Source of the DNA: an uncultured Pirellulaceae bacterium
GTDB taxonomy: Bacteria > Planctomycetota > Planctomycetia > Pirellulales > Pirellulaceae
Length of the DNA stretch: 64,000 bases
Reading direction: 5' to 3'
Assembly: GCA_937929805.1 (NCBI GenBank)
Contig: CALFUT010000003.1
Coordinates: 730 to 64,729, forward strand
Shown: in pieces, positions 36,966-56,939 of the stretch
Layout of the letters: each line of letters begins with the position of its first letter
How positions within the stretch are numbered: the first letter of the stretch is position 1
Position numbers and translations under genes: made by a program
Notes under the pieces: model-generated
What the model was told of the DNA's origin: nothing
The model's input: the letters and a program-made list of their open reading frames with translations, nothing else
Database searches by the model: none

Positions 36966-38306
36966 GTGTCGAACGTGGAAACATCAAAGCAGACTTTCAA
37001 AGTCAAAGATATGTCGTTGGCCGAACTAGGCCGCAAAGAGATTGTCCTTGCTGAAAACGAAATGCCCGGTCTGATGGCACTTCGTGAGAAGTACGGAAAA
37101 ACAAAGCCGCTGACTGGTGCTCGCATCGCCGGCTGTCTGCATATGACCGTTCAAACAGCGGTTCTGATCGAGACGCTTGTCGAGCTGGGTGCTGAAGTCA
37201 CTTGGAGTAGCTGCAACATTTTCAGCACTCAAGACCAAGCAGCCGCTGCCATCGCTGAAGCCGGTATCCCCGTCTTCGCGTGGAAGGGCATGAGCGACGA
37301 AGAGTTCAATTGGTGCATCGAGCAAACGCTAACTGCGTTCCCATCGGGCGAGCCGTTGAACATGATCTTGGACGACGGTGGTGACCTAACCGCCATGGTT
37401 CATGACAACTACCCAGAGCTGTTGGCGAACATCAAAGGGATCAGCGAAGAAACCACCGCAGGTGTTCACCGTCTAATCGTGTTGGCAGAAGAAGCCAAGC
37501 TTCAGGTTCCGGCCATCAACATCAACGACAGTGCCACCAAGAGTAAATTCGACAACCTTTACGGTTGCCGCGAATCACTTGCGGACGGCGTTAAGCGTGC
37601 CACAGACGTGATGCTGGCTGGTAAGGTTGCCGTTGTCGCTGGATACGGCGATGTTGGAAAAGGTTGTGCTCACTCGCTTCAGCGTTATGGCTGCCGCGTG
37701 ATCGTCACCGAAATCGATCCAATCAACGCCCTGCAAGCTTCAATGGAAGGCTTTGAAGTCGTCACGATGGACGAAGCTGCCTCGCAAGGGAACTTGTTCG
37801 TTACAACAACAGGTAACCGCGACATCATCCTTGGGCACCACATGGAGCAGATGCCAAACGACGCGATCGTTTGCAACATCGGTCACTTCGACACCGAGAT
37901 CGACATCGCTTGGTTGGAAACTCAGGTCGAAGCAGGCAAAATGACCAAAGACAACATCAAGCCGGCCGACATCGGCGCCGTTGACCGCTACACCTTCGCT
38001 GACGGACACAACGTAATCGTGCTGGCTCAAGGTCGCTTGGTCAATTTGGGCTGTGCCACTGGCCACCCAAGCTTCGTGATGAGCATGTCGTTCACCAACC
38101 AAGTTCTTGCTCAGCTTGAACTTTGGGAGCGTGCTGAGCAGTACGACGTGAGCGTTCACTTGATGCCAAAACGTTTGGACGAAGAAGTGGCTCGCCTACA
38201 CCTAGATCAGCTTGGCGTGAAACTGACCAAGCTGACTCCAGAGCAAGCCGAGTACATGAACGTTCCAGTCGATGGACCCTACAAGCCGGACCACTACCGG
38301 TACTAA
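36966..38306 (+). CDS. ahcY: Adenosylhomocysteinase (SAH hydrolase)
   Basis: [59 protein letters not shown]. Confidence 0.98.
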
Positions 38307-38592
38307 ACTTCGGTTGCGAAACCGATTGCCACTTGTGAGTCAACTTTTGATGGCTCGCAACTGATCACGACGGTGCTGATTGAAAAATCGGCACCGTTTT
38401 TTTGTGCGCAGACCTTCGCACAATTTTTTCGGCAATCAATCGAACCACCTTTCTTGCCATGCGTAACACCGGATTGATTAATCCAATGAGCAACAATCAA
38501 CATAGCAAATGATTTGCTAGCACTCCCCTTTGACAGCGATTGCAGCGTGCGAGATAACGACGTCTCACACGATGAATCACATAGGTTGGGTA

Positions 38593-39936
38593 ATGGCAGA
38601 CATACAAGCATTTCGCGGTTGGCGATACGACCTAGCCAAGGCTGGCTCGTTGTCTGACCTAGTTGCTCCGCCTTACGATGTGATTGACTCACAGCAACAA
38701 GCTCAGCTTTATGACCAAAGCCCGTACAATGTCACTCGGTTGATTCTCAATCGTGGTGACGACCTGCTGGGTGATCAGACAGTCTACGATCGCGCGGCGG
38801 AGCACCTGAAACGATGGCGTCGCGACGATATCTTAGTTGAGGAAAACGTCGGCACCGTTTACGTGTACCACCAGACGTTTGAGCACGAAGGACAGTCGAT
38901 TACGCGGCGTGGGTTCATCGCTCGGACGAAGCTGGAACCATTTGGGTCGGGGACAATCTACCCGCACGAGCAAACTCATTCGGCGGCGAAAGAGGATCGG
39001 TTCAAACTGATGGCGGCCTGCCAAGCTAATCTGAGTCCAATCTTTGGTATTTACCCAGACCCCGATAATGTCGCTCAGGAAGCACTCGAGTCGGCCATTC
39101 AAGACCGTACTCCGCTAACGGCTATCGATGATCATGGCGTGCGTCACGAGATGTGGATGTTGACCGACGCCAATGCGATCGCTGCCGCCGCCAACCTGCT
39201 CGGGTCCGTTCCGATGTACATCGCCGACGGTCATCACCGATACGAAACCTCATGTGCGATTCGTGACCATCGAAGACAGGTCGAAGAAATCGACGGCGAG
39301 CATCCCGCGGACTACACGATGATGATGTGCGTCAGCATGCACGACCCCGGCATGGTTGTGTTGCCGACCCACCGGCTGTTCCGGCAGATCAAACCGTTGA
39401 CCTCAGCCGATCTAATCGCCAGCTTTGGCGACGCTTTCACGTGCGAGGTCGCCGGGCAAGGCATTCACCAAGCCGATTCGGTTTGGGAAGCCATCGTTGT
39501 TGAGGACCGGCAGTCAACGCTAGGCTTCTACTGCCGGCAAGACGACACGTGGGTGCTTGCCCGCCTTTCAGAACAGGGAGCAACGACACTGCAAGAACTC
39601 GCGCCTGACCAAAGTGAGGAATGGCGAGACCTTGGCGTTTCGATTCTTCACAAGCTGGCGATCGAGAAGCTGCTCGGCTACTCCGACCTACCGTCTCCCT
39701 GCTACGTTCACGACATACCAGAAGTCATCGGACGACTCACTCACGGAGATACCGCTGGCCGCGACGCGACCGGACAAGAGGGTGACGGCGGAGCGTTTGA
39801 GCTTGCCTGTTTAGTGATGCCGGCCACCTTAGACCACGTCCAAGCAATCAGCGAGAACGGAGAACGAATGCCCGCCAAGAGCACCTACTTCTACCCGAAG
39901 CTGCTGAGTGGTTTGGTGATTAATCCACTGCAATAG
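38593..39936 (+). CDS. DUF1015 family protein
   Basis: APPYDVI, IYPHEQT, YIADGHHRYET, PTHRL, MPAKSTYFYPKLLSGL. Confidence 0.93.
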   Translation: MADIQAFRGWRYDLAKAGSLSDLVAPPYDVIDSQQQAQLYDQSPYNVTRLILNRGDDLLGDQTVYDRAAEHLKRWRRDDILVEENVGTVYVYHQTFEHEGQSITRRGFIARTKLEPFGSGTIYPHEQTHSAAKEDRFKLMAACQANLSPIFGIYPDPDNVAQEALESAIQDRTPLTAIDDHGVRHEMWMLTDANAIAAAANLLGSVPMYIADGHHRYETSCAIRDHRRQVEEIDGEHPADYTMMMCVSMHDPGMVVLPTHRLFRQIKPLTSADLIASFGDAFTCEVAGQGIHQADSVWEAIVVEDRQSTLGFYCRQDDTWVLARLSEQGATTLQELAPDQSEEWRDLGVSILHKLAIEKLLGYSDLPSPCYVHDIPEVIGRLTHGDTAGRDATGQEGDGGAFELACLVMPATLDHVQAISENGERMPAKSTYFYPKLLSGLVINPLQ

Positions 39937-40106
39937 TGTCCAGTCAAAAGCCTAGAGTCATCGCTTGGGTGCCAAATCTAGCTTTCTGCCACTTGCTCTC
40001 GGCTATGCTGCAAGCCAGTTCGGACAGCCTGCCTTTTCCTCTCCCCCAAGCTGGGTGCCAATTGTAAGCTGAGTGCCAAGGCTTCCGCTTGCGTAAGCAA
40101 GCCCAG

Positions 40107-40250
40107 ACGAGGCTGTGATTTTTTGTGACGTCGTTTCACTAAGTGGTTCGCGCCGTTTGTAGTAGCGGCTTCAGTCGCTTGAAAACGACAACCGAAAGCC
40201 TCAAGGCTTTACTACGAACCTTGCTCTCTAAAAAAATCGCAGCCCGGGCC
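40107..40250. repeat. ~145-bp dispersed REP/MITE-like element (family C, copy 2) with terminal inverted repeats
   Basis: Ends GGCTGTGATTTTTT and AAAAAATCGCAGCC are inverted repeats with one mismatch; body aligns with 941..1089. Confidence 0.75.
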
Positions 40251-40285
40251 TGATTCCGGCATGAAATCGATGTGGCCACAAAAGG

Positions 40286-40301
40286 AGTTTCACGTGAAAC
40301 T
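40286..40301. promoter_or_regulatory. parS centromere site 1 (AGTTTCACGTGAAACT)
   Basis: Perfect 16-bp palindrome, 14/16 identical to consensus TGTTTCACGTGAAACA, ~1 kb upstream of parA. Confidence 0.85.
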
Positions 40302-40338
40302 GGATAAACCAATCCGTTAAGCTGGGGCGACCACAGAA

Positions 40339-40354
40339 AGTTTCACGTGGAACG
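40339..40354. promoter_or_regulatory. parS centromere site 2 (AGTTTCACGTGGAACG)
   Basis: 14/16 identical to TGTTTCACGTGGAACA; 53 bp from site 1. Confidence 0.8.
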
Positions 40355-40475
40355 GCCACTGCCTGCAATGTTTACGGAAGCATTTGGCGGAAACGAAATT
40401 GGGGCCTATCGTCGATAAGATCAACGACCCGTTTTCTTGTTTTCTTAGGCAATTCGTTCGTGGGAGATTTTGGCA

Positions 40476-40685
40476 ATGGTCGACTCACCAAACCAGACCG
40501 GCCAAGAATTCGTATGGGCTGTTTTGTTCTTTGGAGCTTGCTGGCTATTCGCCTCTGCTGCACTGCTCGTACACTTCCAGCTAGTCACCCTATCCGTTCT
40601 GAATTTGTTCTTGGCGGTCACACTGGTATGGGCAGTAGCCAGCGTTGGCTTGATCGCAACCGGTTGGTCACCGGGAGGAAAATGA
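40476..40685 (+). CDS. Candidate small two-TM membrane protein (69 aa)
   Basis: GGGAG SD 9 nt before the ATG; two strongly hydrophobic stretches. No family recognised. Confidence 0.45.
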   Translation: MVDSPNQTGQEFVWAVLFFGACWLFASAALLVHFQLVTLSVLNLFLAVTLVWAVASVGLIATGWSPGGK

Positions 40686-40716
40686 GCGGCCGTCGCAAAA
40701 TGCTGCGGCGCCTCTT

Positions 40717-40995
40717 GGGTGCCATGCCTTACGCTTGCGTAAGCATGATTCACAACCGGCGCGACCGTGGCCTCGAAGAGAATTTCTTATTCGCAACTTT
40801 CGGTGCCATGCCTTACGCTTGCGCAATCATGATCAGGTGTCATTGACTTCGAGGGTCAGGAAGCATGCTCATGCTCATTCTTCGCGTGAGCATGGCACCC
40901 AGACTGCGTGAGCATGGTACCGTTAGCATGGCACCCGAACCGCGTTAGCATGGCACCCGAACCGCGTGAGCATGGCACCCGAATCGCGTGAGCAT
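40717..40995. repeat. Cluster of family A palindromes and ~22-bp tandem repeats
   Basis: GGTGCCATGCCTTACGCTTGCG x2 (40718, 40802), then about six CGCGT(G/T)AGCATGGCACCCGAAC-like units at 40883-40995. Confidence 0.85.
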
Positions 40996-41271
40996 CACCA
41001 CCGATTGCAGCGGTCCACCCCACCCGTTACATCGGTTCATACGCCCCCCAACGTAGGTCAACGGCAACGGCGGCCGTCTGAACTGATGGTCCAAACGTCA
41101 TCCATCCAAACAAACATCCCAATCAATCTGTGACACCAAGGTACCTCAGTCAATCGACTTGCTATCACGTGAAAGTTGATGTTTGTTCAATCACCGCCAC
41201 GTGATACGCTCTTCGGTTCAACAAAATTTCGCAGCCGGTTGCTGCGCTCGGATGGATTCGAGGGATAAGAC

Positions 41272-42018
41272 GTGGGCCGAACATTCTGCATTGCGAACCA
41301 GAAGGGGGGCGTGGGAAAAACCACGACCTCCATCAATCTGGCAACCGCACTCGCCCGCAGCGGCCACCACACGCTGTTGGTCGACATGGATCCGCAATGC
41401 AATGCGACATCCGGGATCGGCCAGCAACCCGTCGATCGTCATCCGTTAATCGTGGACCAAGCGATCCGCCACGGCGTTCTTTCGACCGATGTCGATCGTC
41501 TTGATCTACTTCCGGGCAGCAAATCATTTCGCGACCTAAGCGTGCTAGCGTCAGACGATAGCAACCACGACGAACTTCTGATCGAACACTTAGCCAACGG
41601 AGCGGCTAGGTACGACTACGTGCTGATTGACTGCCCTCCTTCGTTGGGAAAACTAACTCGTACGGCTCTGTCCGTCTCGAACGAAGTCCTGATGCCCATC
41701 CAATGCGAATACTTCGCGATGGAAGGACTGGCTCAAATGATCGACGTGATTCGCAGCGTGATGCTTGACCGACCGGGTCAGCTGACCTTCGGTGGCATCG
41801 TGCTAACGATGTACGACGAATCACTTGAGCTTACGCAGGAAGTGGACCAAGAGGTTCGCGATTTTTTTGGAGAAATTGTTTTTGACACCGTTGTTCCACG
41901 TGACGTCCACGTCACCGAAGCGCCCAGTCACGGCCAAAGCGTAATCGATTACGCGCCGCGATCGAGAGGAACAAGGGCATACATGGAATTGTGCATGGAG
42001 GTACTGGAACGTGACTAG
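41272..42018 (+). CDS. parA: Chromosome partitioning ATPase ParA/Soj
   Basis: ANQKGGVGKTT, LLVDMDPQCNAT, YVLIDCPPSLG, PIQCEYFAMEG, EAPSHG. Confidence 0.96.
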   Translation: MGRTFCIANQKGGVGKTTTSINLATALARSGHHTLLVDMDPQCNATSGIGQQPVDRHPLIVDQAIRHGVLSTDVDRLDLLPGSKSFRDLSVLASDDSNHDELLIEHLANGAARYDYVLIDCPPSLGKLTRTALSVSNEVLMPIQCEYFAMEGLAQMIDVIRSVMLDRPGQLTFGGIVLTMYDESLELTQEVDQEVRDFFGEIVFDTVVPRDVHVTEAPSHGQSVIDYAPRSRGTRAYMELCMEVLERD

Positions 42019-43045
42019 AAAAAAACGACTTGGCCGAGGCCTTGAAGCATTGTTGAACACGACGGTCGAGTCAGTCGACGCGCCGGTTCGAACTGCTCAG
42101 AATTCATTGGCGGCAGTCGTCGCCGAACCGCCGAGAAGTACGGCAACGCAACCGGCTTCCGTTCCTGTGAACGTAAAGCAACTGGATGTGGTTCATTCAA
42201 AAGATCCGGTCGATGGCGAGATCGTCCACCTGAATGTTTACGACATCGAGGACAATCCGTTTCAACCACGCCGCGTGTTTAGCGAAGCAGAAATCGGATC
42301 GCTGTCGGAAAGCCTAAAAGAGCACGACATCCTGCAGCCGATTTTGGTGCGAGTTGTCAACGGACGGTATCAGTTGATCAGTGGCGAGCGTCGTCTGCGA
42401 GCGGCCATCAAAGCAAACTGGAAAACGATTCCGGCTCGTTTGAGAACAGCCGACGACCGCTTGGTCTCCGAACTGGCGATTGTCGAAAATCTCCAGCGTC
42501 AAGATCTGAACCCAATCGAAAAAGCGCTTTCGTTTCGCCGTTACTTGAACGAGCACAATTGCACTCAGGATGGGCTGGCCGGAAGACTTAAAATCGACCG
42601 CTCGACGATCGCCAACTTGATGCGATTGCTTGAGCTTCCAACTCCAATCCAAGACGCTTTGCAGGAGGGCAAAATCTCTGCCGGCCACGCGCGAGCCCTG
42701 CTGCCGCTTGGGGACGAAAACCTGCAAGTAGAATTCTGCCAACGAATTATCCGGGAAGGCATGAGCGTCAGGGCGGTCGAACAGGCGGTGCGAGAGAAGA
42801 TTGCGGCTGAGGACAAATTCGGAATCAGCCCAGCGACCCGGCGAAAAAGAGCCCGCGATCACCAGATCCAGTCCCTGCAACAGGAACTCAAAACCGCGTT
42901 GGGAACCAAGGTGCAAATACGCAACGGCTCAGGCCAAAAAGGGCAGATCGTCGTCCATTTCAACAATGCCACCGAATTCGAGCGACTAAGAGCTCTACTT
43001 GGTGGCCGGGATCTTGGCTCAAATAACTCGGATCGGGCCGCCTAA
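42011..43045 (+). CDS. parB: Chromosome partitioning protein ParB/Spo0J
   Basis: NPFQPR, ISGERRLRA (CTPase arginine patch), ENLQRQDLNPIE, HTH RSTIANLMRLL; overlaps parA by 8 nt. Confidence 0.96.
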   Translation: MTRKKRLGRGLEALLNTTVESVDAPVRTAQNSLAAVVAEPPRSTATQPASVPVNVKQLDVVHSKDPVDGEIVHLNVYDIEDNPFQPRRVFSEAEIGSLSESLKEHDILQPILVRVVNGRYQLISGERRLRAAIKANWKTIPARLRTADDRLVSELAIVENLQRQDLNPIEKALSFRRYLNEHNCTQDGLAGRLKIDRSTIANLMRLLELPTPIQDALQEGKISAGHARALLPLGDENLQVEFCQRIIREGMSVRAVEQAVREKIAAEDKFGISPATRRKRARDHQIQSLQQELKTALGTKVQIRNGSGQKGQIVVHFNNATEFERLRALLGGRDLGSNNSDRAA

Positions 43046-43192: not shown

Positions 43193-43267
43193 CGGGGTGT
43201 AGCGCAGTCTGGCTAGCGCACCTGGTTTGGGACCAGGGGGTCGGAGGTTCGAATCCTCTCACCCCGA
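43193..43267 (+). tRNA. tRNA-Pro (anticodon TGG), CCA not encoded
   Basis: Acceptor CGGGGTG/CACCCCG-A; anticodon stem CCTGG/CCAGG with loop TT-TGG-GA; T-loop GGTTCGAATCC. Confidence 0.96.
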
Positions 43268-43366
43268 CTTTTTTGATCTTAGTTTCTTCCGATAGACTTT
43301 GCCGGCTTGTTGATTCGGTCGGCTGGGCATTGAAGCCATTTCTAACGAACGAACGGAACACCGCGA

Positions 43367-43867
43367 ATGGATTCACCGCTCTGCTTCGACGACGTGTCTG
43401 TTGGCCAGACATGGACTAGCCCGCGTCGCACAGTAACTGAAGCGGACGTGATCAACTTCGCGACGATGACCGGCGATTTCAATCCACTTCATGTAGATTA
43501 TCATTACGCGGCAAACAGCCATTATCGGCAACCGGTCGCTCACGGCCTGCTGGGTCTATCGTGGGTTGCTGGCCTCGGTAGTTATTCACCCAGCGTAAGT
43601 ACGATTGCGTTCACCGCCGTTCGTAGTTGGGAATTCGCCAGACCACTTTATTTCGGTGACACTGTCTACGTGGTCACATCCTGTGTCAGCAAAACACCCA
43701 CCAGCCGGCGGGCAGGAAAGATCGTTTGGGAACGCAAGTTGCTCAACCAAGACGACCAAGTCGTTCAGCACGGTCAATTCGAAACGCTTGTCTCTATGAA
43801 ACAAGTCGTTCCTCCCCCTCACGTGACGAACGTTGGCTCGCCTGCGAAAGCGACCTCTGTCGAGTGA
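43367..43867 (+). CDS. MaoC-like (R)-hydratase/dehydratase
   Basis: FATMTGDFNPLHVD...AHGLL hot-dog hydratase motif; PLYFGDT. Confidence 0.92.
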   Translation: MDSPLCFDDVSVGQTWTSPRRTVTEADVINFATMTGDFNPLHVDYHYAANSHYRQPVAHGLLGLSWVAGLGSYSPSVSTIAFTAVRSWEFARPLYFGDTVYVVTSCVSKTPTSRRAGKIVWERKLLNQDDQVVQHGQFETLVSMKQVVPPPHVTNVGSPAKATSVE

Positions 43868-44210
43868 GATCATGCCGCCGGATTTACACCGGCGCGTATC
43901 AAATTCATCGGTTGAAGGTTCACGAGACTTGATCCAAATCGGTTATTTCGATTGATTTTGTTTTCGTCCGAATTCTTACCGCGTTCGATAATGCTCTCTC
44001 GCGCGAAACCTGCTACTGTCTCGACCCACAACTGATTCAGTAAGCTTCCGACGCATTTGCTGTCAGCTCAAATGCTGTCACGTGGTTTAATCGATCCAAG
44101 CGGCTTAAGTCGCAAAATCCATTCAAGCCGACCACAGTCAGTCGACGATGGGATGATGACGATACGCCCAGCTTTCTGTGCGCAATTCCGCGTTTTTGCA
44201 AGAAACTCGC

Positions 44211-45386
44211 ATGAACACCACAAATGACTATCCTCAAGACGCACCCGTTCTGCGCCAAGCGTCTCGAAAACGTTCCGTGATCGCCTTCTTGGTCACGTCC
44301 CTCGCAGCCTTTTTAATGATCGGGCTGACATGGCCGCTCACGATGAAGGGCTATCAATCGGAGGGATTGATTGAGTTCGAAAATCAGCAGGTCGCCTCAA
44401 CGTTGGTCAACAACGATCTACCCACCGCGTTGAGATCCGCCTTGCATCCAACTGCGATGCGAAACCGTCTCGAACAGATGGGCACCGACAGTAGTCGGCT
44501 AAATGCTGGCAACGTCGAGGAACTACACCGTCGAATCAGCGTCGGTTTCCGAGATGGATCTTCGACGCAAAAGCCGAGCCTAAGAGTCGTTTTGGTGGGC
44601 AAAGGAACTGCAGACGAAGCCCGTTTCATTGAGTCTTTCGTCAGCGACCTCGCGACGCGTCTTGAAGTCGCCGCAGTCGCGATTACTCGTGCTGATGGAA
44701 CCGCTCGGACGCCCAGTCGTCCGGTCCATCAAGCTCAGTGGTTGGTCAATCAAATCGAAGAAGGCTTGACCAGCGCAAAGACTCAAACCGCTCACTTGAT
44801 GGCCCACAATTCCGCTCATTACGGAGCCTCGACCTTTCGCAACGTTGGTCACGTCAAGGAACAAGCTACTACCGGCATGGACAGCTTGCATCGAACGTTG
44901 GAGAGCGTGGATGTCTCATCGTTGCGAGGAGTGATCGAACAGCTTGAGAAAAACGGTGTTCAGCAAAGCACCGGACTGGTCCGTTTTGATGCCAATCGTA
45001 TTGCCAGTCGTCCCGTGGGAGCCGTACCGAACGCAGCTTCGCTGATGCTTGCTGGACTCGTGTCAATGATTCTGGGCGGTGTGGTTGCGTGGAACCTTCA
45101 ACCATTCGCCGATCAGGGATTTGAGAGTGTCGACGATGTGGCAAACCAGCTGGGCGTACCGGTCGTTGGAACGCTTAACGTGGATCCTCCAGCAATCGTT
45201 GATGTCGAACAACCGTTGTTAAACCTATGGGCCAATCGAGCCGTAAGGCTTAGCGGAACTGTGCTTGCCGCAATTGCGATCCTCGGAGTTGGCTTTTGGC
45301 TGACTTCCGCGGAAGTCAGGGATTCGTTCGGCGAGAGCTGGTTCCACGGATTCGCTCGTATTGTATGGAAGCTATCCGGATCCTGA
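44211..45386 (+). CDS. Wzz/Wzc-like (polysaccharide co-polymerase-type) membrane protein with three TMs
   Basis: TM1 followed by Y.SEGLIEF, large periplasmic region, TM2, then FESVDDVANQLGVPVVGTL (Wzc-type post-TM motif) and an extra C-terminal TM. No tyrosine cluster. Confidence 0.6.
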   Translation: MNTTNDYPQDAPVLRQASRKRSVIAFLVTSLAAFLMIGLTWPLTMKGYQSEGLIEFENQQVASTLVNNDLPTALRSALHPTAMRNRLEQMGTDSSRLNAGNVEELHRRISVGFRDGSSTQKPSLRVVLVGKGTADEARFIESFVSDLATRLEVAAVAITRADGTARTPSRPVHQAQWLVNQIEEGLTSAKTQTAHLMAHNSAHYGASTFRNVGHVKEQATTGMDSLHRTLESVDVSSLRGVIEQLEKNGVQQSTGLVRFDANRIASRPVGAVPNAASLMLAGLVSMILGGVVAWNLQPFADQGFESVDDVANQLGVPVVGTLNVDPPAIVDVEQPLLNLWANRAVRLSGTVLAAIAILGVGFWLTSAEVRDSFGESWFHGFARIVWKLSGS

Positions 45387-45487
45387 GACAACGACTAACC
45401 GAGTCACCCGTTGACTCTACACTCGCCCGAATCAGCGAAATGATTCAACCCTTGACAAAAAAGCTGTTTTCGACACAGGAAGTCGTT

Positions 45488-47908
45488 ATGTACCAAGAAA
45501 TTTTTGATTTTAGCGGACGGCCATTCACGATGGCTCCGTACGTAAAGCACTTCTTTGAAGGCGGCCCCGTCAAGGAATCATTTGACCAGGTCACTGAATC
45601 AATCAGTCGTGATGCTGGCCCGGCAATCGTTGTTGGAGAACACGGGACCGGCAAGACGTTATTGCTAACATTGCTGTCCGAGCAGTATCAACAAAAGTTC
45701 AAAGTGATTTCGCTGTCTTGCGGGCCGATGTCCGCGCGTCGCGATTTACTTCAAGCGATTCTCTTTGAGCTCAAGCAACCCTACCGCGATCTGAGCGAAG
45801 GTGAACTGCGTCTGTCACTAATTGACTTCATCAAGCCCGCCGCCAACTGCCCAAATGGCGTGCTACTGCTGATTGACGACGCTCAGGCCTTAACTTCTGA
45901 TCTTGTGGACGAACTGCGATTGATCACCAATTTCGTCCGCGACGGAGTCCCGCGAGTTCGGCTTGTTTTTTGCGGCACTGGTCGGTTTGAAGAAATTCTG
46001 ACAGAGCCAAAACTGGAATCCTTTAACCAACGTATCTCGACCCGCTGCTTCCTTGGAAATCTTACTCGCGAACAGACACAAGCTTACGTCCACGAACACA
46101 TTGCTCGCGTTGGCGGCAACGCAACGACAATGTTCGACAGCTGCACAACGGAAGCAATTCACGAGGCAACTTCTGGATGCCCTCGGTTTATAAACCAGCT
46201 TGCAGAACAGTGCATGATCTACGCTGCGACACACGGCAGCATGATCGTCGAGCCGAACATGGTTGCGCCGGCGTGGGCACAAGTCCAAGGCCTACCAACC
46301 GCTGACCCGAACGCTCCGGTTCCAACTGATTCAAACGATGAAAACTGGACCGTCATCGAATTTGGAACACTCGACGACGACGAGGACTTCGCTGAGGATT
46401 CGGATCAAACGTCGGCAGCGGCGGATAGCGGTATTGCTTCAAACGATGAGCCCGGCAAACTGTTAAACGACAGTGTGAACGTCGAAATCACCGGCGAATC
46501 AATGGATGCTGAAGTAACCGAGCCCGAACCAACCCACGTCGATTCACATTGGGGCGACGTTGGCAGCTCCGATCCATTTGTCGCTCATGAATCGGTTTCG
46601 GATCAGGAAGAACTCGGTGCCACTGAAGCCCAGACAGACGAGACTTCCGTGTCGGCGGAGACAGAAGACGGTTACACGTACGAACCGCTCGCCGCCTCGA
46701 TCGAAGAAGATCAGATCCAAGCCACGGCTGAAACGAGCTCAATACCAATTGAATTCGGCGACTTGGCTCAAGACCAAGAGGACACATGGGCTGCTGCCGG
46801 TTTTGCAGCCGACACCCAAGCTGACGAATTATCCGCCCAACTGGATACCTCAGCCGAACAAACATCTTCGGAGCCTACGGAGGAAGAAACAGAGGGTGTT
46901 TCAGAAAGCCAGTCGCTTGCCGATTCAGCATTGCCGGCCGTTCCAGCAATTGCCGCTGCGGTGGCTGCGAGCATGGCTAACCCGTTTGCAGAGGCATTTG
47001 ACTCGGAAGAACCTGTCTCAACCGAGTTCAATGACCAACTGGCGGAGCAGAATGTTTCCTCAATGAGTGTCACGGGTGAGCAGCTTGATCAGCTGTCGCC
47101 TCCGAATGAGGACCTGCCAAACAACACTGGAATCCCTGTCGTTAGCCTCGCTGATGAGGCCAGCCCGACGCCAGAAACTTTTTCCGAAGAACCTGCACCC
47201 GCTTTCGAGACAACGGTTCCCGTTGACTCAGAAGAATACACAGCTGATCAACTGAATTCCGTATTTGGTTCCATGGAGAACGATCAAACGGCGGCCGACA
47301 ACGTTGCGGGTCCAACTGCCGAGATGGAACCGGTGGATCGTTCATCGGAGCCGGACCTGAACGTCGCACCGGAAACTGACGACGATGAGAGCAATTTCCA
47401 TGAGCACAACACCCAACAACCCACAGCCGACATCCAGCAGCAGGCGGACGAGATTTTGAGTTCGATTCGGACACCGGAACCTGCACAAAACGACTCCATC
47501 GATGAAGGAGCCAAACCCGCTTCCGAACCATGCGACACCGATCCAGCCGTGGCCCAAGACAATGTTGAAATCAGCGAGGCCCAAAGAATCCTCGCAGAAA
47601 TTCTCGAACACAAACAACTGCTTAGCGAACAGGTTACGCCGCCAGCGACAGAAAGCCATGCGACCAACATGGCAGAGTTCCCACAAACGCTGCCAATCCA
47701 ACACTCGTATTCGACTGAAGCACCGGGCGAAACCAGTGACATTGGGTACAACGCTGAGCCAACTTCGCAAGCTCAAAATCATTCGGATCCGACGTCACCA
47801 AATAGCACCTACGGCAACGATGGAGCTGCCGTGTCGATCGGACGAGCAGAACGGATGAACTATGAGAAATTGTTTGAGCAGTTGCGCGATCAGGGTGACA
47901 AAACTTAA
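45488..47908 (+). CDS. ExeA/GspA-like AAA+ ATPase with long acidic low-complexity C-terminus
   Basis: MYQEIFDFSGRPF start, Walker A GEHGTGKT, Walker B LLIDDAQ, RLVFCGT, TSGCPRFINQL; D/E/S/T/P-rich tail of about 500 aa. Confidence 0.85.
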   Translation: MYQEIFDFSGRPFTMAPYVKHFFEGGPVKESFDQVTESISRDAGPAIVVGEHGTGKTLLLTLLSEQYQQKFKVISLSCGPMSARRDLLQAILFELKQPYRDLSEGELRLSLIDFIKPAANCPNGVLLLIDDAQALTSDLVDELRLITNFVRDGVPRVRLVFCGTGRFEEILTEPKLESFNQRISTRCFLGNLTREQTQAYVHEHIARVGGNATTMFDSCTTEAIHEATSGCPRFINQLAEQCMIYAATHGSMIVEPNMVAPAWAQVQGLPTADPNAPVPTDSNDENWTVIEFGTLDDDEDFAEDSDQTSAAADSGIASNDEPGKLLNDSVNVEITGESMDAEVTEPEPTHVDSHWGDVGSSDPFVAHESVSDQEELGATEAQTDETSVSAETEDGYTYEPLAASIEEDQIQATAETSSIPIEFGDLAQDQEDTWAAAGFAADTQADELSAQLDTSAEQTSSEPTEEETEGVSESQSLADSALPAVPAIAAAVAASMANPFAEAFDSEEPVSTEFNDQLAEQNVSSMSVTGEQLDQLSPPNEDLPNNTGIPVVSLADEASPTPETFSEEPAPAFETTVPVDSEEYTADQLNSVFGSMENDQTAADNVAGPTAEMEPVDRSSEPDLNVAPETDDDESNFHEHNTQQPTADIQQQADEILSSIRTPEPAQNDSIDEGAKPASEPCDTDPAVAQDNVEISEAQRILAEILEHKQLLSEQVTPPATESHATNMAEFPQTLPIQHSYSTEAPGETSDIGYNAEPTSQAQNHSDPTSPNSTYGNDGAAVSIGRAERMNYEKLFEQLRDQGDKT

Positions 47909-47977
47909 ACCGAATCCGCCCGCAACTTGTTTACCAAACGCGAAGATCATTTGCAGAACCAACCTGAGCAAAAATCG

Positions 47978-48790
47978 ATGAATCCAATCGTAAAGACAGC
48001 AACGATTCCTCACTTGAACTCGTTCCGAAATCTGCTTCCTCCCGGAAACGCTTCGACGGACGTGCTCACCGCAACCGAAGAACAATTGGCTCAAATGAGC
48101 GAAGCGACACTGGACCGACTGAGTGATCGTGTTCATCGCATTGGTTCGCCAGTTGCCGAATTGCAAGTGCCGACCAACGAGTCCAAAACCAAGCTCGCCG
48201 CACCTAGCAAGATCGCTAGTGACGCAATCCAAAACGTTGTCAACCAGATTGCAGAACGATCAAACTCGGCCGTTCCAATGATTCTGTTATTCGCAGGCTC
48301 CGAGCCAAATGAACATGTCGACGAGATGAGTGCACGGATCGCCGCTACCCTTTGCGACACGATGGACTCGCGTGTACTATTGATCGACTCGGACAATGTT
48401 AGCAAAAATCTAACCACGGCTTCGCGCCGCCTGGAAGAGTCCGGCATGACGGAAGTGATCGAGTACAACCGCGATTGGCGTGTGAACCTGCTTAGAAACC
48501 AAAGCTCAAATCTGGACTTTCTTCCCGTTGGAAACGGTTCATTCGGCAGGTGGAATCAGAAAGAGCTACTTCGTAAAGCTGCCTGCGAAATGAAAACGGA
48601 ATATCAGTATATTTGCGTTGCCGTCGGAGACGCACACAGCAAGGCCGCGAAGTTGTGGTCTGACGTTTGCGATGGAAGCTACCTGTTGGTAAGCATCAAA
48701 AACTCGAACGGAACGATCGCAAAATCTGCCGTCACCGAACTCAAAACCAACGGCGCACGATTGCTTGGCTGTATCGCCACCGACGCGTAG
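47978..48790 (+). CDS. CpsD/CapB (BY-kinase)-fold protein with degenerate catalytic motifs
   Basis: Fold markers RVLLIDSD, LDFLPVG, YQYICV, DGSYLLV, GARLLGCI are present. The P-loop reads SEPNEHVDE (no GK). Confidence 0.7.
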   Translation: MNPIVKTATIPHLNSFRNLLPPGNASTDVLTATEEQLAQMSEATLDRLSDRVHRIGSPVAELQVPTNESKTKLAAPSKIASDAIQNVVNQIAERSNSAVPMILLFAGSEPNEHVDEMSARIAATLCDTMDSRVLLIDSDNVSKNLTTASRRLEESGMTEVIEYNRDWRVNLLRNQSSNLDFLPVGNGSFGRWNQKELLRKAACEMKTEYQYICVAVGDAHSKAAKLWSDVCDGSYLLVSIKNSNGTIAKSAVTELKTNGARLLGCIATDA

Positions 48791-48898: not shown

Positions 48899-49930
48899 AT
48901 GCATATCCTAGTCACTGGCGGCGCAGGTTACATCGGAAGTCACACTTGCCTAGAGCTATTGAAAGCAGGCTACGAGGTTACCGTCGTCGACAATCTGTGC
49001 AACAGCTCTGAGGAGTCTTTGCGTCGAGTCCAAAAGCTAACAGGCAAATCCCTTCAGTTTCAGAATGTGGACCTTCGCGATTCCGACGCCTTGGACAAGG
49101 TGTTTGCTGACAACAAGATCGATTCCGTCATTCACTTTGCCGCGCTCAAGGCCGTTGGCGAATCGATGTCTAAACCACTGGACTACTACGAAAACAACAT
49201 CACTGGAACGCTCAACTTGTGCTTTTTAATGCAGAAGCATGGCGTCAAGGATTTTGTTTTCAGCTCCAGCGCGACAGTGTATGGAACACCAAAATCACTG
49301 CCGATGACTGAGGAAGCCGACACTCCGATCCATGAGGTCACCAACCCCTACGGCCGCACCAAATTGATGATGGAGTATGTCTTACGCGATTGGAGCGTTG
49401 CCAACCCGGACGTCAACATTGCTTTACTCCGCTACTTCAACCCTGTCGGCGCTCACGAGTCCGGCCAAATTGGTGAAGACCCGGCTGGAATTCCTAACAA
49501 CCTTTTGCCATATGTCGCTCAAGTCGCCGTCGGTAAACTTAAACAACTGAGTGTCTTTGGTGACGACTATGAAACCGAGGACGGCACAGGAGTTCGAGAC
49601 TACATTCACGTCGTCGATTTGGCCAAGGGACACGTAGCAGCTTTGAAAAAGCTGGAGGAAAAACCGGGCGTGGTAACGTACAACCTCGGAACCGGGCAAG
49701 GCTACAGCGTTCTGGAAATCGTCGCGGCGTTCGAGAAAGCGTCCAGCAAGAAGGTGCCGTACAAAATTTCAGCTCGTCGCAGCGGAGATATCGCGTCAAT
49801 GTATGCCGACCCTTCAAAAGCGACCAGCGAACTTGGCTGGACCGCAAAGTCTGGCATCGACGAGATGTGTGCCGACAGTTGGCGTTGGCAGTCTGCCAAT
49901 CCTGACGGGTACCCAAGTGAAAACGGATAG
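48899..49930 (+). CDS. galE: UDP-glucose 4-epimerase
   Basis: [56 protein letters not shown]. Confidence 0.97.
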
Positions 49931-50876: not shown

Positions 50877-50927
50877 TTGTAAACTTGGTTAAACCAATAC
50901 CGATACCAACTTGGATTGCGAACAAGT

Positions 50928-51674
50928 ATGACAGGCAATGAACTTGATGAAAGTCCAATCGATCAAAGCCTTGCGATCATCATTGCGACTTACAATGAAA
51001 TCGACAACTTGCCGACGCTTGTTGAGCAACTGACTTCGCTACTACCGGAGGCGGAGATTTTAGTGATCGACGACAATTCGCCCGACGGGACCGGCAACTG
51101 GTGTGACGAAAACAAGTCACGCTACCCATCGCTCCATTGCATTCATCGTAGCGGCAAACTTGGCTTAGGCTCGGCAACGGTCGAGGGTTTGGGCTGGGCA
51201 ATCGACCAACGGCATTCTTTCGTCGCGACCATGGACGCCGATTTCAGCCACAACCCGGCGACACTGCCCGATTTGTTTCGAAAGATTTCACAAGACGCGG
51301 ACGAAAAACTGGCTGTCGCGATCGGCAGCCGCTATGTGCCGGGGGGAGCCATTGAAGGCTGGCCGTGGTTTCGTCGGTTTGCATCCAAAGCCGTCAACCG
51401 GTTTGCTAGACTGTGGCTTGGTCTAAGCACTCGCGACAACAGCGGCGCGTTTCGGGTTTATCGAACAAGTGCTTTGCAAGCAATCGGGCTCGAATCAATC
51501 CACAGCAAGTCGTACTCGTACCTTGAGGAAATCTTGTATCGCCTGAAGCAAGCAGGTTTTCGATTTACGGAACACCCAATCGTTTTCAAAGATCGAGAAC
51601 ATGGCGTGACCAAAACGAACTGGAAGCTTGGCGTAAAAGTCTTTTGGGAACTTTTCTTGTTTCGATTTACCTGA
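50928..51674 (+). CDS. Polyprenol monophosphomannose synthase (GT2, DPM1-like)
   Basis: IATYNEIDNL, IDDNSPDGT, MDADFSH, GSRYVPGG, RDNSGAFR. Confidence 0.9.
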   Translation: MTGNELDESPIDQSLAIIIATYNEIDNLPTLVEQLTSLLPEAEILVIDDNSPDGTGNWCDENKSRYPSLHCIHRSGKLGLGSATVEGLGWAIDQRHSFVATMDADFSHNPATLPDLFRKISQDADEKLAVAIGSRYVPGGAIEGWPWFRRFASKAVNRFARLWLGLSTRDNSGAFRVYRTSALQAIGLESIHSKSYSYLEEILYRLKQAGFRFTEHPIVFKDREHGVTKTNWKLGVKVFWELFLFRFT

Positions 51675-54582: not shown

Positions 54583-54720
54583 AGAATCGTCGGAGCCACC
54601 ACTGTCCTCCGCGAATTCAAGAGCTCACGCGATAGCGATTTGTCGGGCAGGAGTGCCCTACGCGAGCGATGATTGTCGTTTAGTTCGCGTTCATACGTTC
54701 GGACAGGAAATTGGGACGAA

Positions 54721-56928
54721 ATGATGGGTCAGGCAATTAACTCACAGCGCAGGTTCAAACGGAACTTCTATCGAGCTCAAGCGATCACCGCGACCGTTTG
54801 CATGTCGTTGTCGGTTGGCATCACGTCGATTGCATTTGCTCAATCGGGTTCGGATACCAAGAGCTCGTCTGCGGCCAATGAGTCCACAACGGCTGATGGA
54901 TCGTCAGCTAAGCAGTCTGCAGGCCGTAGTCTGACCACGGGCTTGAAGACACCCCGCTCCACTGATGATGGCTCCAATACGAAAAACTCGAACTCAAGAA
55001 GCCTAACCAAAGGGCTGAGCAAAAAGAACTCGAGCGGTGCCGACAGCAAGAACAGCAATGCGAACAAAGGCAGCTCGACTCGTAACCAACCGGGCGGGTC
55101 GAACATTGACTTCTCGAAAGTGCCCAAGTACCAGCGTCTTGAGTCAACCGAGTTAAACGCGGACCTTCTGAACGCGGCCCTCGATTCTGCCGAAAAGATC
55201 GACGCGATGATCGACAAGGGCCTGAAGGAAAACAAGGTCCGCCCGGAGAAGGTGACCGACGACTACGAGTTCGTTCGACGAGCCTACTTGGACATTTCAG
55301 GAACCATCCCCACCGGCCGTCAAGCAGTTGCGTTTGTTCGTTCTCGAAAAAGCCGCGATGAAAAACGGTCGGCACTGGTCGACCATCTGCTGAACTCGCA
55401 AGGTTACGTCAGCCACTCCTTCAATCTCTGGGCGGAGATTCTGCGACTGACAGACAATGTTCCTAGAACTGCCAACCTGCGCCCCTACAACGATTGGGTC
55501 AAAGATGCGATCGCGAACGACATGCCTTACAACGACTTTGTGTCGCAGTTGTTGTCGGCTGAAGGTCGCATCTGGGAAAACCCACCCGTTGGCTACGCGC
55601 TTCGCGACCGAGACATGAACATGGCGATCTTGGACAACTCGATGCGTACTTTTTTGGGTACGCGGATCGGATGTGCTCAGTGTCACGACCACCCGTTCGA
55701 CACATGGACGCAAAAGCAGTTTTACGAACTGGCGGCGTTCATTCACGGGACTCGCACCAATCACATGGCCGGTGCGATTGAACAAGCGATCGCCCCCTAC
55801 CGAAGCGAACTGGAACAGCTACCCGAAACGATCGAAACGGCCGAACTGAAAAATCGACTCGATCGCGTTATTGACCAAAGCATCATCGGCGTTATTGAAG
55901 ATCGAGACGCGCGGCTAAGACTACCCAAAGATTACAAGTACGACAACGCTCGCCCGCGTCAAAAGGTTGAGCCAAAAGTCGCCTTTGGTTCTCCTCCCGT
56001 GATTGAACCGGGCGTTCCATTGAGGGCAACGTTCGCCGATTGGGTCACGTCGCCAGAAAACCCTCGATTCGCCATGACCATCGCCAATCGATTGTGGAAG
56101 CGAGTCTTTGGGGTCGGGTTAATTGAGCCCATCGACAATCACAACGACGCGACGGAGGCGAGCAATCAAGAACTTCTCGATTTTTTGGTCGCCGAGTTTC
56201 AGCGTGTTGGCTATCGGCAGCGTGAGTTCTTGCGAATCCTGTACAACACGAAAGCCTACCAGCGAAAGGCTTTCTTGGGTGACTGGAACCCCAACCAACC
56301 GTACTACTTTCAAGGTCCCATCCTTCGTCGGATGACGGCTCAACAGCTTTGGGATTCGATGCTGACGCTTACGTTAGCCGACCCAGACCTTTATGAGCGG
56401 CCTCGTGGTGAAGAGTCGCTGAAAGTCGTTGCGCTTGATCCGGACAAAACGTACTCGATGAGTGACATCAAGAAAAAGTATGAGATGTACCGACGCGAGC
56501 GTAGCGACAAAGGCCAAGAAGCAAAACTCAACAAGGTTCATTCCCACGACGGCTATTTGCTCGTTCGCGCCTCGGAAATGCCCCAACCTCAACGCCCCGA
56601 CCATTTCCTTCGTCAATTTGGCCAAGGTGACCGGACGTTGATTTCGGGCGATTCGGTCGAAGGCCATGTTCCTCAGATTTTAACGATGTTCAACGGGCCG
56701 ATTTCTCACAAACTGCTTTACGAGGGAACGGTTATCTACGACGAAGTGGCGGGCGCATCCACTGCCAGCAACAAAATCGAGGTGATCTTCCTGAGCATTC
56801 TCACGCGTCCTCCAACGCGACTTGACAAACGGGTCGCGATGGCTGAGATGGAATCCGCAGGTGCCGCAGGCGTCGGCAATCTGATTTGGTCGCTTTTAAA
56901 CACTCGCGAGTTCATGTTTATCCAATAG
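54721..56928 (+). CDS. DUF1549/DUF1553 (PSD1) domain protein
   Basis: EFVRRAYLDISGTIPT, FLGTRIGCAQCHDHPFD, NRLWKRVFGVGLIEP, LWSLLNTREF; signal peptide and S/K/N-rich linker. Start uncertain. Confidence 0.93.
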   Translation: MMGQAINSQRRFKRNFYRAQAITATVCMSLSVGITSIAFAQSGSDTKSSSAANESTTADGSSAKQSAGRSLTTGLKTPRSTDDGSNTKNSNSRSLTKGLSKKNSSGADSKNSNANKGSSTRNQPGGSNIDFSKVPKYQRLESTELNADLLNAALDSAEKIDAMIDKGLKENKVRPEKVTDDYEFVRRAYLDISGTIPTGRQAVAFVRSRKSRDEKRSALVDHLLNSQGYVSHSFNLWAEILRLTDNVPRTANLRPYNDWVKDAIANDMPYNDFVSQLLSAEGRIWENPPVGYALRDRDMNMAILDNSMRTFLGTRIGCAQCHDHPFDTWTQKQFYELAAFIHGTRTNHMAGAIEQAIAPYRSELEQLPETIETAELKNRLDRVIDQSIIGVIEDRDARLRLPKDYKYDNARPRQKVEPKVAFGSPPVIEPGVPLRATFADWVTSPENPRFAMTIANRLWKRVFGVGLIEPIDNHNDATEASNQELLDFLVAEFQRVGYRQREFLRILYNTKAYQRKAFLGDWNPNQPYYFQGPILRRMTAQQLWDSMLTLTLADPDLYERPRGEESLKVVALDPDKTYSMSDIKKKYEMYRRERSDKGQEAKLNKVHSHDGYLLVRASEMPQPQRPDHFLRQFGQGDRTLISGDSVEGHVPQILTMFNGPISHKLLYEGTVIYDEVAGASTASNKIEVIFLSILTRPPTRLDKRVAMAEMESAGAAGVGNLIWSLLNTREFMFIQ

Positions 56929-56939
56929 GGTACAGGCTG

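Follow-up and report, generated by a model that had tools for sequence, protein, structure and literature searches.

The three co-directional genes g1, g2 and g3 in the window (the whole stretch of 64,000 nucleotides of Pirellulaceae DNA that was analysed) most likely encode a modified form of an already known module for sugar-polymer export and not a new system for chromosome positioning. The trio is probably a lineage-specific derivative of the Planctomycetota-type export module consisting of a PCP, an ExeA-like ATPase and a BY-kinase, and would control the polymerisation or export of envelope glycan. Folds, motif losses, gene order, conservation and distribution were observed directly and form the basis of this interpretation. 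A sequence-only reading of the same DNA had derived the trio from the set found in EPS loci (chain-length determinant, ExeA-like ATPase and BY-kinase), which was supported by folds and homology. Its further proposal, that the set had been repurposed into a positioning module linked to ParABS and budding, found no support, since the same gene order occurs together with Wza in ordinary Wzy-type EPS loci, one of which has a dead P-loop. Literature searches on Planctomycetes chain-length determinant, ParA, holdfast or Wzc returned no paper on the trio. The features of the locus are as follows:

40286-40301, + strand: parS-like palindrome AGTTTCACGTGAAACT, context
41272-42018, + strand: parA, context
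42011-43045, + strand: parB, context; g1 starts 1.2 kb downstream
43193-43268: tRNA-Pro, between parB and the MaoC gene
43367-43867: MaoC gene, between tRNA-Pro and g1
44211-45386, + strand: g1, ORF for a PCP-2-like inner-membrane protein of 391 aa
45488-47908, + strand: g2; its ORF opens at 45296, and the start at 45488 was set by the MY(E/Q)xxF of the homologues
45488-46360, + strand: N-terminal domain of g2, an AAA_22 / ExeA-like / TIGR03015-like ATPase
46361-47908, + strand: tail of g2, an acidic low-complexity linker of 516 aa
47978-48790, + strand: g3, stand-alone BY pseudokinase of 270 aa; its ORF opens at 47927
48899-49930, + strand: galE, UDP-glucose 4-epimerase (TIGR01179, 463 bits)
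50916-51674, + strand: small GT2 glycosyltransferase of the ArnC/DPM-synthase-like polyprenyl-phosphate sugar transferase type

The placement of the three co-directional ORFs after parS-parAB-tRNA-Pro-MaoC and before galE was verified in both positions and context. The start of g3 at 47978 corresponds to Met18 of the ORF opened at 47927 and was chosen from the starts of its homologues, while a GTG at 44178, upstream of g1, is an alternative possible start. The galE gene is co-directional, lies 108 nt downstream of g3 and is probably a functional neighbour of the trio. A promoter and terminator scan of the 43-52 kb region gave a signal no higher than that of shuffled sequence. No Wza, Wzx, Wzy or exosortase was found within about 15 kb of the trio, and the earlier remark that the cluster holds none of them was borne out from ~29 to 63 kb of the window.

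The homologies expected from TIGR03007, TIGR03015, TIGR03018 and Pfam held for the three proteins, although single-sequence scores were weak and the curated cut-offs of TIGR03007 and TIGR03015 were not reached. For g1, single-sequence Pfam and NCBIfam scans were unusable, and the assignment needed family profiles and structure models. The single-sequence Pfam scan gave no match, including Wzz and GNVR, and the window protein alone reached TIGR03007/03017 only at E about 0.1 (TIGR03007 E 0.13). TIGR03007 was matched by 8 of the 23 family members, the best at 4.6e-5, far under the 278.85-bit cut-off. With the family profile, the best PDB match was Wzc (E 1e-3), in an alignment that spans the pre-TM2 motif, TM2 and the juxtamembrane motif. 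The TM scan gave three segments (TM1 22-40, TM2 275-293, TM3 347-365), and the AF2 model (pLDDT 74) agrees with this layout of TM1 and TM2 plus an extra TM3. The periplasmic part is short, about 230 aa, and consists of an alpha/beta base with a short helical hairpin. When the model was compared with the PDB by Foldseek, the best 50 matches were all PCPs (WzzE 8e-6, Wzz, Wzc, KpsE), with low TM-scores of about 0.2.

Both motifs that mark PCP-2 proteins, the Pro-rich one before TM2 and the juxtamembrane (R)G(I/F)xSxxx(L/V)xxxLG(I/V)P after TM2, are present in g1. The first contains an invariant Pro273 just before TM2, and the second reads FESVDDVANQLGVPVVGTL in the cytoplasmic segment between TM2 and TM3; in the family alignment P273 and L314 are invariant and P317 is nearly so. 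A conserved amphipathic segment, EVRDSFGESWFHGFARIVW, follows TM3 at the C-terminus. Judged from the model together with these motifs, g1 is a three-TM protein of PCP fold and PCP-2 type, in which the third TM helix and the conserved C-terminus are new.

The g3 protein has a BY-kinase fold and, as read from its motifs, is catalytically dead in the whole family. Its single-sequence HMM matches to TIGR01005, TIGR01007 and TIGR03018 range from E 5.5e-07 to 4.4e-05. The family profile matches BceF, Wzc, VpsO, CapB and Etk at 5e-14 to 6e-9, and also BcsQ (1e-6), MinD (2e-4) and CapA-CapB chimera chains. The core of the AF2 model has a pLDDT above 92, and its best Foldseek matches are all BY-kinase domains (VpsO, Wzc, CapAB, Etk and BceF, ~1e-12 to 1e-10). 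The canonical Walker A GxxxxGK(S/T) is absent and reads AGSEPNEHVDEMS; the P-loop is replaced by a conserved GSEPNEHVDE, for which the family consensus is GSExNxHxDET with no Lys. Walker A' is conserved as LLIDSD with an invariant D154, and the Arg after it is not conserved. In place of the Walker B hhhhDTPP the protein reads YICVAVGDA (family consensus FVCVSAGDA), with Ser or Ala at the Asp position of hhhhD in the family. The ExxRxxR motif is likewise absent, the aligned helix reading IxxLVDxILERFP, while distant relatives keep E(Q)xRxxR. The protein ends directly after GARLLGCIATDA, without a C-terminal Tyr cluster, and both the GSExNxHxDE loop and the missing Tyr tail are found family-wide.

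The statement that the kinase had lost its catalytic motifs was therefore confirmed for the P-loop Lys, the Walker B Asp, ExxRxxR and the Tyr tail, in the whole family. The companion statement that the membrane partner has no Tyr tail was misplaced, because the Tyr cluster of BY-kinases belongs on the C-terminus of the kinase itself; as g3 has none there, the loss of the phosphorylation substrate still stands. In a tree of BYK-like proteins the family g3 clade was monophyletic, and the tree did not resolve the BYK lineage from which it arose.

Of the three proteins, only g2 has its nucleotide-binding motifs intact. Its Walker A, GEHGTGKT (aa 50-57), is intact, and this type is conserved in 69/69 complete aligned homologues; its Walker B reads LLLIDD (aa 126-131), with DD in its own clade and DE in most relatives. 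TIGR03015 was the best NCBIfam match (129.7 bits, E 1.3e-37), below the cut-off of 324.5, and AAA_22 was matched at 3.7e-19. A search of the N-terminal domain against the PDB by sequence gave no match. No TM segment was predicted in g2 or g3 by the TM scan, and no PG-binding domain was matched in g2, which is the only TIGR03015-like gene of the genome.

The tail of g2 contains 22.9% D/E and 2.1% K/R, with a net charge of -107. Conserved islands occur within it, namely NWTVIEFGTLDDD (aa 285-300) and NPFAEAFDSEEPV..F (about aa 495-525), and the protein closes with the C-terminal motif GRAERMNYEKLFEQLR (aa 785-800; family form RMDYxxLFxQLR), which is kept in every full-length family member. The orthologues range from 482 to 1206 aa in length and the linker is variable; a variable acidic linker that ends in a conserved motif is thus what is new in g2. 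Six-frame searches of the own genome for the C-terminal motifs of g1 and g2 returned a single occurrence of each, with no second carrier.

The order g1-g2-g3 is invariant in every Pirellulaceae locus showing all three genes. The trio is a single-copy set throughout the sampled family; the g3 profile matched 61 of 151 genomes, and g2 was present in 10/10 tested genomes without a g3 match. The usual conserved block is [parB-parA-DUF1015-ahcY]<>[g1-g2-g3-epimerase-GT2-acs], and in the commonest layout parAB lies on the strand opposite to the trio with ahcY and DUF1015 in between. The synteny with parAB on which the sequence-only reading relied held in part: ParB lies 6.6-11 kb from the trio in 13 of 20 family genomes, and the link was lost in only the other 7, where ParB is 0.1-2.4 Mb away or on another contig. 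An epimerase and/or a GT2 follows g3 co-directionally in most family loci, and the GT2 is downstream of the trio in most of them, including those without galE. No Wza, Wzy, Wzx or initiating transferase adjoined the trio in the Pirellulaceae loci examined. Of the seven genomes in which parAB and the trio are unlinked, four to five (G229, G238, G313, G210; G204) showed no sugar gene near the trio, and G204 retained only ahcY. The neighbours scanned there, at the loci L087, L089 and L106, were unrelated (RNA ligase, M48 peptidase, TPR and cytochrome-type proteins). The adjacency to parAB probably reflects an old conserved gene block rather than a shared function.

Partners for an export module were found in the rest of the genome. 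Away from the trio it encodes five Wza, two exosortases and two fused Wzc, so partners in trans exist, and Wzx and Wzy are also encoded elsewhere. An exosortase-linked trio was considered and rejected, as the exosortase genes lie on another contig (C8, the trio being on C3) and g2 is far below the TIGR03015 cut-off.

It has been described that a PCP and a stand-alone BY pseudokinase together make up a PCP-2 subfamily that does not depend on phosphorylation, represented by EcpK/EpsV and HfsB/HfsA (PMC12004946). The trio fits the definition given there, a BYK fold without catalytic motifs or Tyr tail that is encoded with a kinase-less PCP-2 (PMC12004946). EcpK/EpsV and HfsB/HfsA likewise combine a kinase-less membrane PCP with a separate cytoplasmic protein of BY-kinase fold, for which a scaffold role was proposed. 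The trio differs from them in that the gene for an ExeA-like AAA+ ATPase lies between those for the PCP and the pseudokinase, that g1 has a third TM helix and its C-terminal segment is conserved, and that g3 retains Walker A' (LLIDSD), whereas EcpK lacks all three motifs. The trio also lacks an adjacent Wza, Wzx, Wzy and glycosyltransferase cluster, and lies instead in a block with ahcY, DUF1015 and parAB. In the XrtA/PEP-CTERM EPS set, a TIGR03007 chain-length determinant, a TIGR03015 ATPase and a TIGR03018 Tyr autokinase co-occur in a similar way, but the trio scores far under the curated cut-offs, g3 matches TIGR03018 weakly and its kinase is dead.

A parallel in gene order came from two Wzy-type EPS loci of other Planctomycetota. 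One, L078, encodes a WecA-like GT, CapD, Wza, a PCP, an AAA_22 ATPase, an active BYK with a YYYY tail and Wzy; the other, L081, encodes Wza, Wzz, AAA_22, a dead BYK (EDEGSS), GT4s, Wzy and Asn synthase. Both have the identical order PCP, ATPase and BY-kinase(-like) protein, and the P-loop of L081 is also Lys-less, a loss that recurs in L074, L082 and L085. Unlike the trio, they encode Wza immediately upstream and, in addition, Wzy, GT4s and sugar-nucleotide genes, and their kinases keep ExxRxxR. The 299-aa ATPase of L081 has no tail, compared with roughly 200-900 aa in the g2 family. Homologues therefore do occur in ordinary EPS loci, where the sequence-only reading had named orthologues as evidence against itself, but they are distant, with only 22-26% identity to the window proteins. 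Neither these loci nor the loss of the parAB link in 7 of 20 family genomes cleanly refutes that reading. As a general rule, the idea that g2 replaces a lost kinase activity was rejected, because tail-less AAA_22 proteins also stand beside active BY-kinases (L078).

Two further systems resemble single components. ExeA/GspA shares with g2 the AAA_22 P-loop ATPase domain and the N-terminal MYxxxF...PF start. ExeA, however, is the partner of ExeB and contains both a TM helix and a periplasmic domain that binds peptidoglycan. Both are lacking in g2, where an acidic disordered tail with a terminal motif takes their place. The split PCP-2b/BY-kinase CapA/CapB of Staphylococcus aureus shares the split architecture, and the segment after TM2 of g1 resembles the juxtamembrane segment of CapA that activates or docks the kinase. 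Unlike g3, CapB is catalytically active and has a Tyr cluster; unlike g1, CapA stops after its juxtamembrane tail and has no third TM.

For the trio as an export module, the following mechanism can be proposed. The g1 protein would act as a PCP-2-type inner-membrane co-polymerase, and we infer that it contacts g3, which its cytoplasmic loop between TM2 and TM3 probably docks by analogy to the CapA tail docking CapB. Going by its motifs, g3 should neither bind or hydrolyse ATP canonically nor be Tyr-phosphorylated. Because the BY-kinase fold is kept while canonical ATP use and Tyr phosphorylation are lost, g3 may scaffold the PCP oligomer, the role suggested for EcpK and HfsB. For g2 we infer that it powers an energy-dependent step of assembly, disassembly or remodelling, and it could be tethered, or recruit partners, through the acidic linker together with the conserved motif at its C-terminus. 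Most likely, the module governs how an envelope polysaccharide or glycan is polymerised or exported. The precursors would presumably be supplied by the co-directional galE and the polyprenyl-phosphate GT2, and the Wza, Wzy and Wzx paralogues encoded elsewhere would act with the module in trans. Several observations count against such an export role: the export partners are not adjacent, the periplasmic part of g1 is short and lacks a Wzz or GNVR match in Pfam, sugar genes are missing near the trio in parAB-unlinked genomes, and the ATPase stands alone in the sister family.

Little is understood of the cell envelope and polar attachment in this lineage, for which the trio would be a further conserved envelope-glycan module. 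BY pseudokinase/PCP-2 pairs have been recognised only recently, and how they cycle without phosphorylation is an open question. In the planctomycetal version an ATPase whose Walker motifs are intact is encoded between the two partners, which offers a testable candidate for the missing energy input, and the short conserved motifs in the g2 tail are open to mutation or to use as bait. A bolder reading, which would answer how BY pseudokinases cycle if it were true, is rather unlikely. It regards the trio as a family-wide single-copy PCP machine in which an AAA+ ATPase cycle replaces the tyrosine phosphorylation cycle. There g2, tethered by an acidic entropic linker and by a docking motif at its end, would power the g1/g3 ring's assembly and disassembly, which BY-kinases normally drive by autophosphorylation, and the set may be kept near the pole-anchored centromere so that a holdfast or envelope glycan is deployed at the pole.

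It is unlikely that g2 is the centre of the system, a class-wide ExeA-like envelope-assembly ATPase that helps to build an OM- or peptidoglycan-spanning multimer, as ExeA/GspA does for a secretin, with g1 and g3 as family-specific membrane adaptors replacing a TM or PG-binding partner. The full trio was found in one family only (Pirellulaceae), whereas 8/8 sampled sister-family genomes have a long-ORF g2 orthologue, a long-tail ATPase with a related C-terminal motif, with no g1 or g3 nearby, so g2 may have a role that is not tied to a PCP. In one of them (G068) the next gene after the orthologue encodes a TM protein carrying two LysM domains, an arrangement reminiscent of ExeA's ATPase/PG-binding design split in two. 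AAA_22 ATPases are found in EPS loci beside live as well as dead BY-kinases, which also suggests that they are not simple substitutes for kinase activity. Against this stand the lack of a TM segment or PG-binding domain in g2, the otherwise inconsistent sister-family neighbourhoods (Na/Ca exchanger, sulfatase, histidine kinase) and the fact that no secretin is nearby.

Pirellulaceae attach via a polar holdfast. The trio might accordingly export a polar holdfast- or stalk-type polysaccharide like HfsA/HfsB of Caulobacter, with selection for its site near the pole-tethered centromere because co-transcriptional insertion into the membrane would direct assembly towards the pole; we consider this distinctly unlikely. 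It would agree with the single-copy occurrence throughout the sampled family and with the frequent position near parS-parAB, kept in two different orientations. HfsA/HfsB is itself a pair of PCP and BY pseudokinase dedicated to the polar holdfast (PMC12004946). The case is purely circumstantial; the link is absent in 7/20 genomes, and neither a Wza nor an HfsD-like gene is adjacent.

Very unlikely is the proposal from which the analysis started, that the trio left polysaccharide export and became a membrane-anchored positioning or scaffold module acting with ParABS in segregation or polar budding of an FtsZ-less lineage. Gene-order conservation is generally poor in this lineage, which lends weight to the trio lying 1.2 kb downstream of parB in the window and to a ParB within 6.6-11 kb in 13/20 family genomes. 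The lack of adjacent export partners, the membership of g3 in the ParA/MinD superfamily in a broad sense (the BcsQ and MinD profile matches) and the absence of ftsZ from the genome also speak for it. However, parAB is on the opposite strand behind ahcY and DUF1015 in the commonest layout, which means no co-transcription with the trio there, and 7/20 genomes hold the trio with ParB 0.12-2.4 Mb off or on another contig. Housekeeping genes with no relation to the trio (ahcY, DUF1015, acs) are part of the block as well, so that synteny in it is not specific to a function. Budding without FtsZ extends across the class, whereas the trio was found in only one family, and the folds of g1 and g3 are specifically those of PCP and BYK, not MinD/ParA. 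On present evidence, the trio has no bearing on chromosome segregation or FtsZ-less division.

Finally, a degenerate EPS-locus remnant with no current function, as could be read from the lost catalytic motifs of g3, the Glu to Asp change in Walker B of g2 in its own clade and the locally missing export partners, is extremely unlikely, because the three ORFs are intact, their order is conserved across a whole diverse family, and the GSExNxHxDE loop and C-terminal half of g3, the juxtamembrane and C-terminal motifs of g1 and the terminal motif of g2 are all strongly conserved.

Three co-directional genes, g1, g2 and g3 (together the trio), were present in the window in the context described by the sequence-only reading, that is, after a parS-like palindrome, parA, parB, tRNA-Pro and a MaoC dehydratase gene, and before galE. 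The gene extents below are the likely ones by comparison with homologues.

40286-40301, parS-like palindrome
44211-45386, g1, PCP (polysaccharide co-polymerase)-like membrane protein
45488-47908, g2, AAA_22 ExeA-like ATPase
47978-48790, g3, BY-kinase-fold protein

There are 343 nt 5' of g1, and the spacers are 101 nt (g1-g2), 69 nt (g2-g3) and 108 nt (g3-galE). The adjacent galE is a true galE (TIGR01179, 463 bits) and is followed by an alpha/beta hydrolase gene on the opposite strand, a small GT2 and an acetyl-CoA synthetase gene. As also claimed earlier, no Wza, Wzx, Wzy or exosortase gene was found at about 29-63 kb of the window. Further downstream (54673-58259), the gene for a PSCyt2/PSD1 (DUF1549/DUF1553) protein is followed by one for a DUF1501 protein, a pairing usual in planctomycetes. 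Elsewhere, the same genome (G000; 4.22 Mb, 95.6% complete) carries two exosortase genes, five Poly_export/Wza genes and two full-length Wzc-type BY-kinases; ftsZ was not found in it. The two exosortase-family ORFs (636 and 596 aa) adjoin each other at about 31-46 kb of contig C8, with a Wza gene ~12 kb off, and this region is likely a PEP-CTERM/EPS locus unlinked to the trio.

The g1 protein has three hydrophobic segments. The best PDB match of its family profile was Wzc, in an alignment that takes in the Pro motif, TM2 and the juxtamembrane segment at the start of the Wzc cytoplasmic domain, and the top 50 Foldseek matches of its AF2 model (pLDDT 74) were all polysaccharide co-polymerases. 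Past the juxtamembrane motif, g1 has two features that canonical PCPs lack: a further TM helix, its third, and an amphipathic C-terminus that is conserved (EVRxxFxxNPFHGFxRIVW). The predicted profile relationships held in part: eight of 23 g1 family members matched TIGR03007, and g2 is TIGR03015-like, but its score (129.7 bits) was under the 324.5 cut-off. In g2, the only TIGR03015-like ATPase of its genome, Walker A is kept in all 69 complete aligned homologues, and Walker B is DE in most of them; the window's own clade has DD. Its 516-aa tail (22.9% D/E, net charge -107) contains no TM segment and accounts for the length variation among orthologues (482-1206 aa). Three islands are conserved in the tail, foremost the C-terminal GRAERMDYxxLFxQLR, a motif that occurs only once in the genome.

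None of the 75 database relatives of g3 has a recorded Pfam domain. A family profile built from 44 sequences matched BceF, Wzc, VpsO, CapB and Etk at 5e-14 to 6e-9, and BcsQ and MinD much more weakly; the best Foldseek matches of the AF2 model (core pLDDT >92) were all BY-kinase domains. The reported loss of catalytic motifs was confirmed family-wide: a conserved GSExNxHxDE segment that lacks Lys stands in place of the P-loop, the Walker B Asp and the ExxRxxR helix motif are gone, and the protein ends directly after GARLLGC(I/V)xTD without a Tyr cluster. Walker A' (LLIDSD) is retained. Since the remodelled loop is itself conserved, g3 is predicted to be a pseudokinase under selection rather than a decaying gene. 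In a tree of BY-kinase-like proteins, those of the Pirellulaceae g3 type formed one long-stemmed clade (100/96) separate from all others. In two alignments of g3 N-termini (A1, A2), many homologues start with a conserved SSQxGRxWL, the GRxWL part of which is missing in the window's own clade, and all have a (T/S)IP motif. The proposed origin of the trio from an EPS export set was upheld.

It has been reported that the BY pseudokinases EcpK and HfsB, for which a scaffold role was proposed, partner with the kinase-less PCP-2 proteins EpsV and HfsA in a widespread, phosphorylation-independent PCP-2 subfamily (Blocher et al. 2025; PMC12004946). Judged by sequence and modelled structure, g1 and g3 fit this definition. 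The trio differs from these systems in several ways, however: an ATPase bearing an acidic linker and a terminal motif is intercalated, the PCP has a third TM helix plus a C-terminal segment, g3 keeps Walker A', no export/polymerase genes are adjacent, and the chromosomal address is conserved.

Planctomycetota of other families also encode stand-alone g3-like proteins, next to tail-less AAA_22 ATPases and PCPs. Locus L078 has the textbook Wzy-type layout (WecA-like GT, CapD, Wza, PCP, AAA_22, BY-kinase, then Wzy), with a kinase of the active type (GEGKS and a YYYY tail), and L081 encodes Wza, Wzz, AAA_22 and a BY-kinase-like protein with EDEGSS, then GT4s, Wzy_C and Asn synthase. L074, L082 and L085 likewise have a P-loop that has lost its Lys. 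Therefore, PCP, ExeA-like ATPase and BY-kinase(-like) protein constitute a recurrent export module of the sampled Planctomycetota EPS loci, within which kinase death recurs. The AAA_22 gene of L078 (9072-9902) is interrupted by an in-frame stop near position 9545 and is therefore either a pseudogene or the site of a sequencing error. In a sister family, all eight sampled genomes encode a long-ORF g2 orthologue (28-33% identity), and no g1, g3, parAB or ahcY was found nearby; three of the five loci examined have a related C-terminal motif (YKNLFSRLRR, FAQLFTRLSQ, FAQLFSRIRQ). In the sister-family locus L125 (G068:C1, 6819-10413, minus strand), the gene for a long-tail AAA_22 ATPase precedes one for a 454-aa membrane protein that carries two LysM domains, a pair resembling the ATPase plus peptidoglycan-binding design of ExeA split over two genes.

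Beyond the observed folds, motif losses, gene order and distribution, a working mechanism can be proposed. By analogy with CapA/CapB and Wzc, the cytoplasmic loop of g1 would dock g3, which would scaffold the PCP oligomer, and g2, the only trio protein with intact nucleotide-binding motifs, may use its tethered motif to drive an energy-dependent step of assembly or remodelling. An envelope glycan would be the substrate, its precursors coming from galE and the polyprenyl-phosphate GT2 and its export running through Wza/Wzy paralogues in trans. We consider this proposal as a whole somewhat probable; its main weak points are the lack of adjacent export partners and the stand-alone ATPase of the sister family.

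The loci of relatives, 35 found by scanning a genome collection and 6 taken from assemblies, all came from Pirellulaceae, Mariniblastus or unclassified Planctomycetota MAGs, and the g1-g2-g3 order was unchanged wherever all three genes were seen. The window's clade has a collinear block DUF1015-parA-parB-MaoC-g1-g2-g3-galE-(x)-GT2-(x)-acs; among the more distant members of the family, parB-parA-DUF1015-ahcY and g1-g2-g3-epimerase-GT2-(acs) lie divergently on opposite strands. The ahcY-DUF1015-parA-parB block is conserved family-wide (window 36966-43045; L086, L093-L095, L111-L114), and its orientation relative to the trio is inverted in the window's clade compared with most family members; tRNA-Pro and MaoC lie between parB and g1 in this clade. 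In L001 (1073-3360), an IS110 transposase gene separates DUF1015 from parA, for which two fragments (97 and 145 aa) were called, possibly owing to a frameshift or assembly error. Among 20 sampled family genomes, ParB was 6.6-11 kb from g2 in 13; in the other seven the distance was 124 kb, 162 kb, 452 kb, 540 kb, 1.27 Mb or 2.4 Mb, or the genes were on different contigs. The trio still adjoins ahcY in two of these seven, and flanking genes were unrelated in the ParB-unlinked neighbourhoods scanned (L087, L089, L106). Therefore, the parAB linkage is real and common, yet mostly not co-directional and dispensable, and what is linked is a larger conserved block, unrelated housekeeping genes included. 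The anticipated parAB synteny was thus recovered only in part, and repurposing of the trio into a positioning or scaffold module tied to parABS and budding was not supported. The interest of the trio is moderate and lies chiefly in the ATPase-plus-pseudokinase combination.

The g3 profile gave matches in 61 of 151 family genomes, with scores that fell off steeply, and all ten tested genomes without a g3 match had long-ORF g2 orthologues; the module therefore appears widespread and perhaps universal in Pirellulaceae, and g3 would be its fast-evolving part. A 99%-complete family genome (L114, G202:C12, 10035-11834) has a tail-less 304-aa g2 with an epimerase directly after it and no detected g3 or g1, and the module may be reduced there. 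Four family genomes (G219, G210, G224 and G214; L115-L118) carry a second, tail-less AAA_22 paralogue of about 300 aa (24-28% identity to g2), which has a BY-kinase-like gene beside it at three of these loci (L115, L117, L118).
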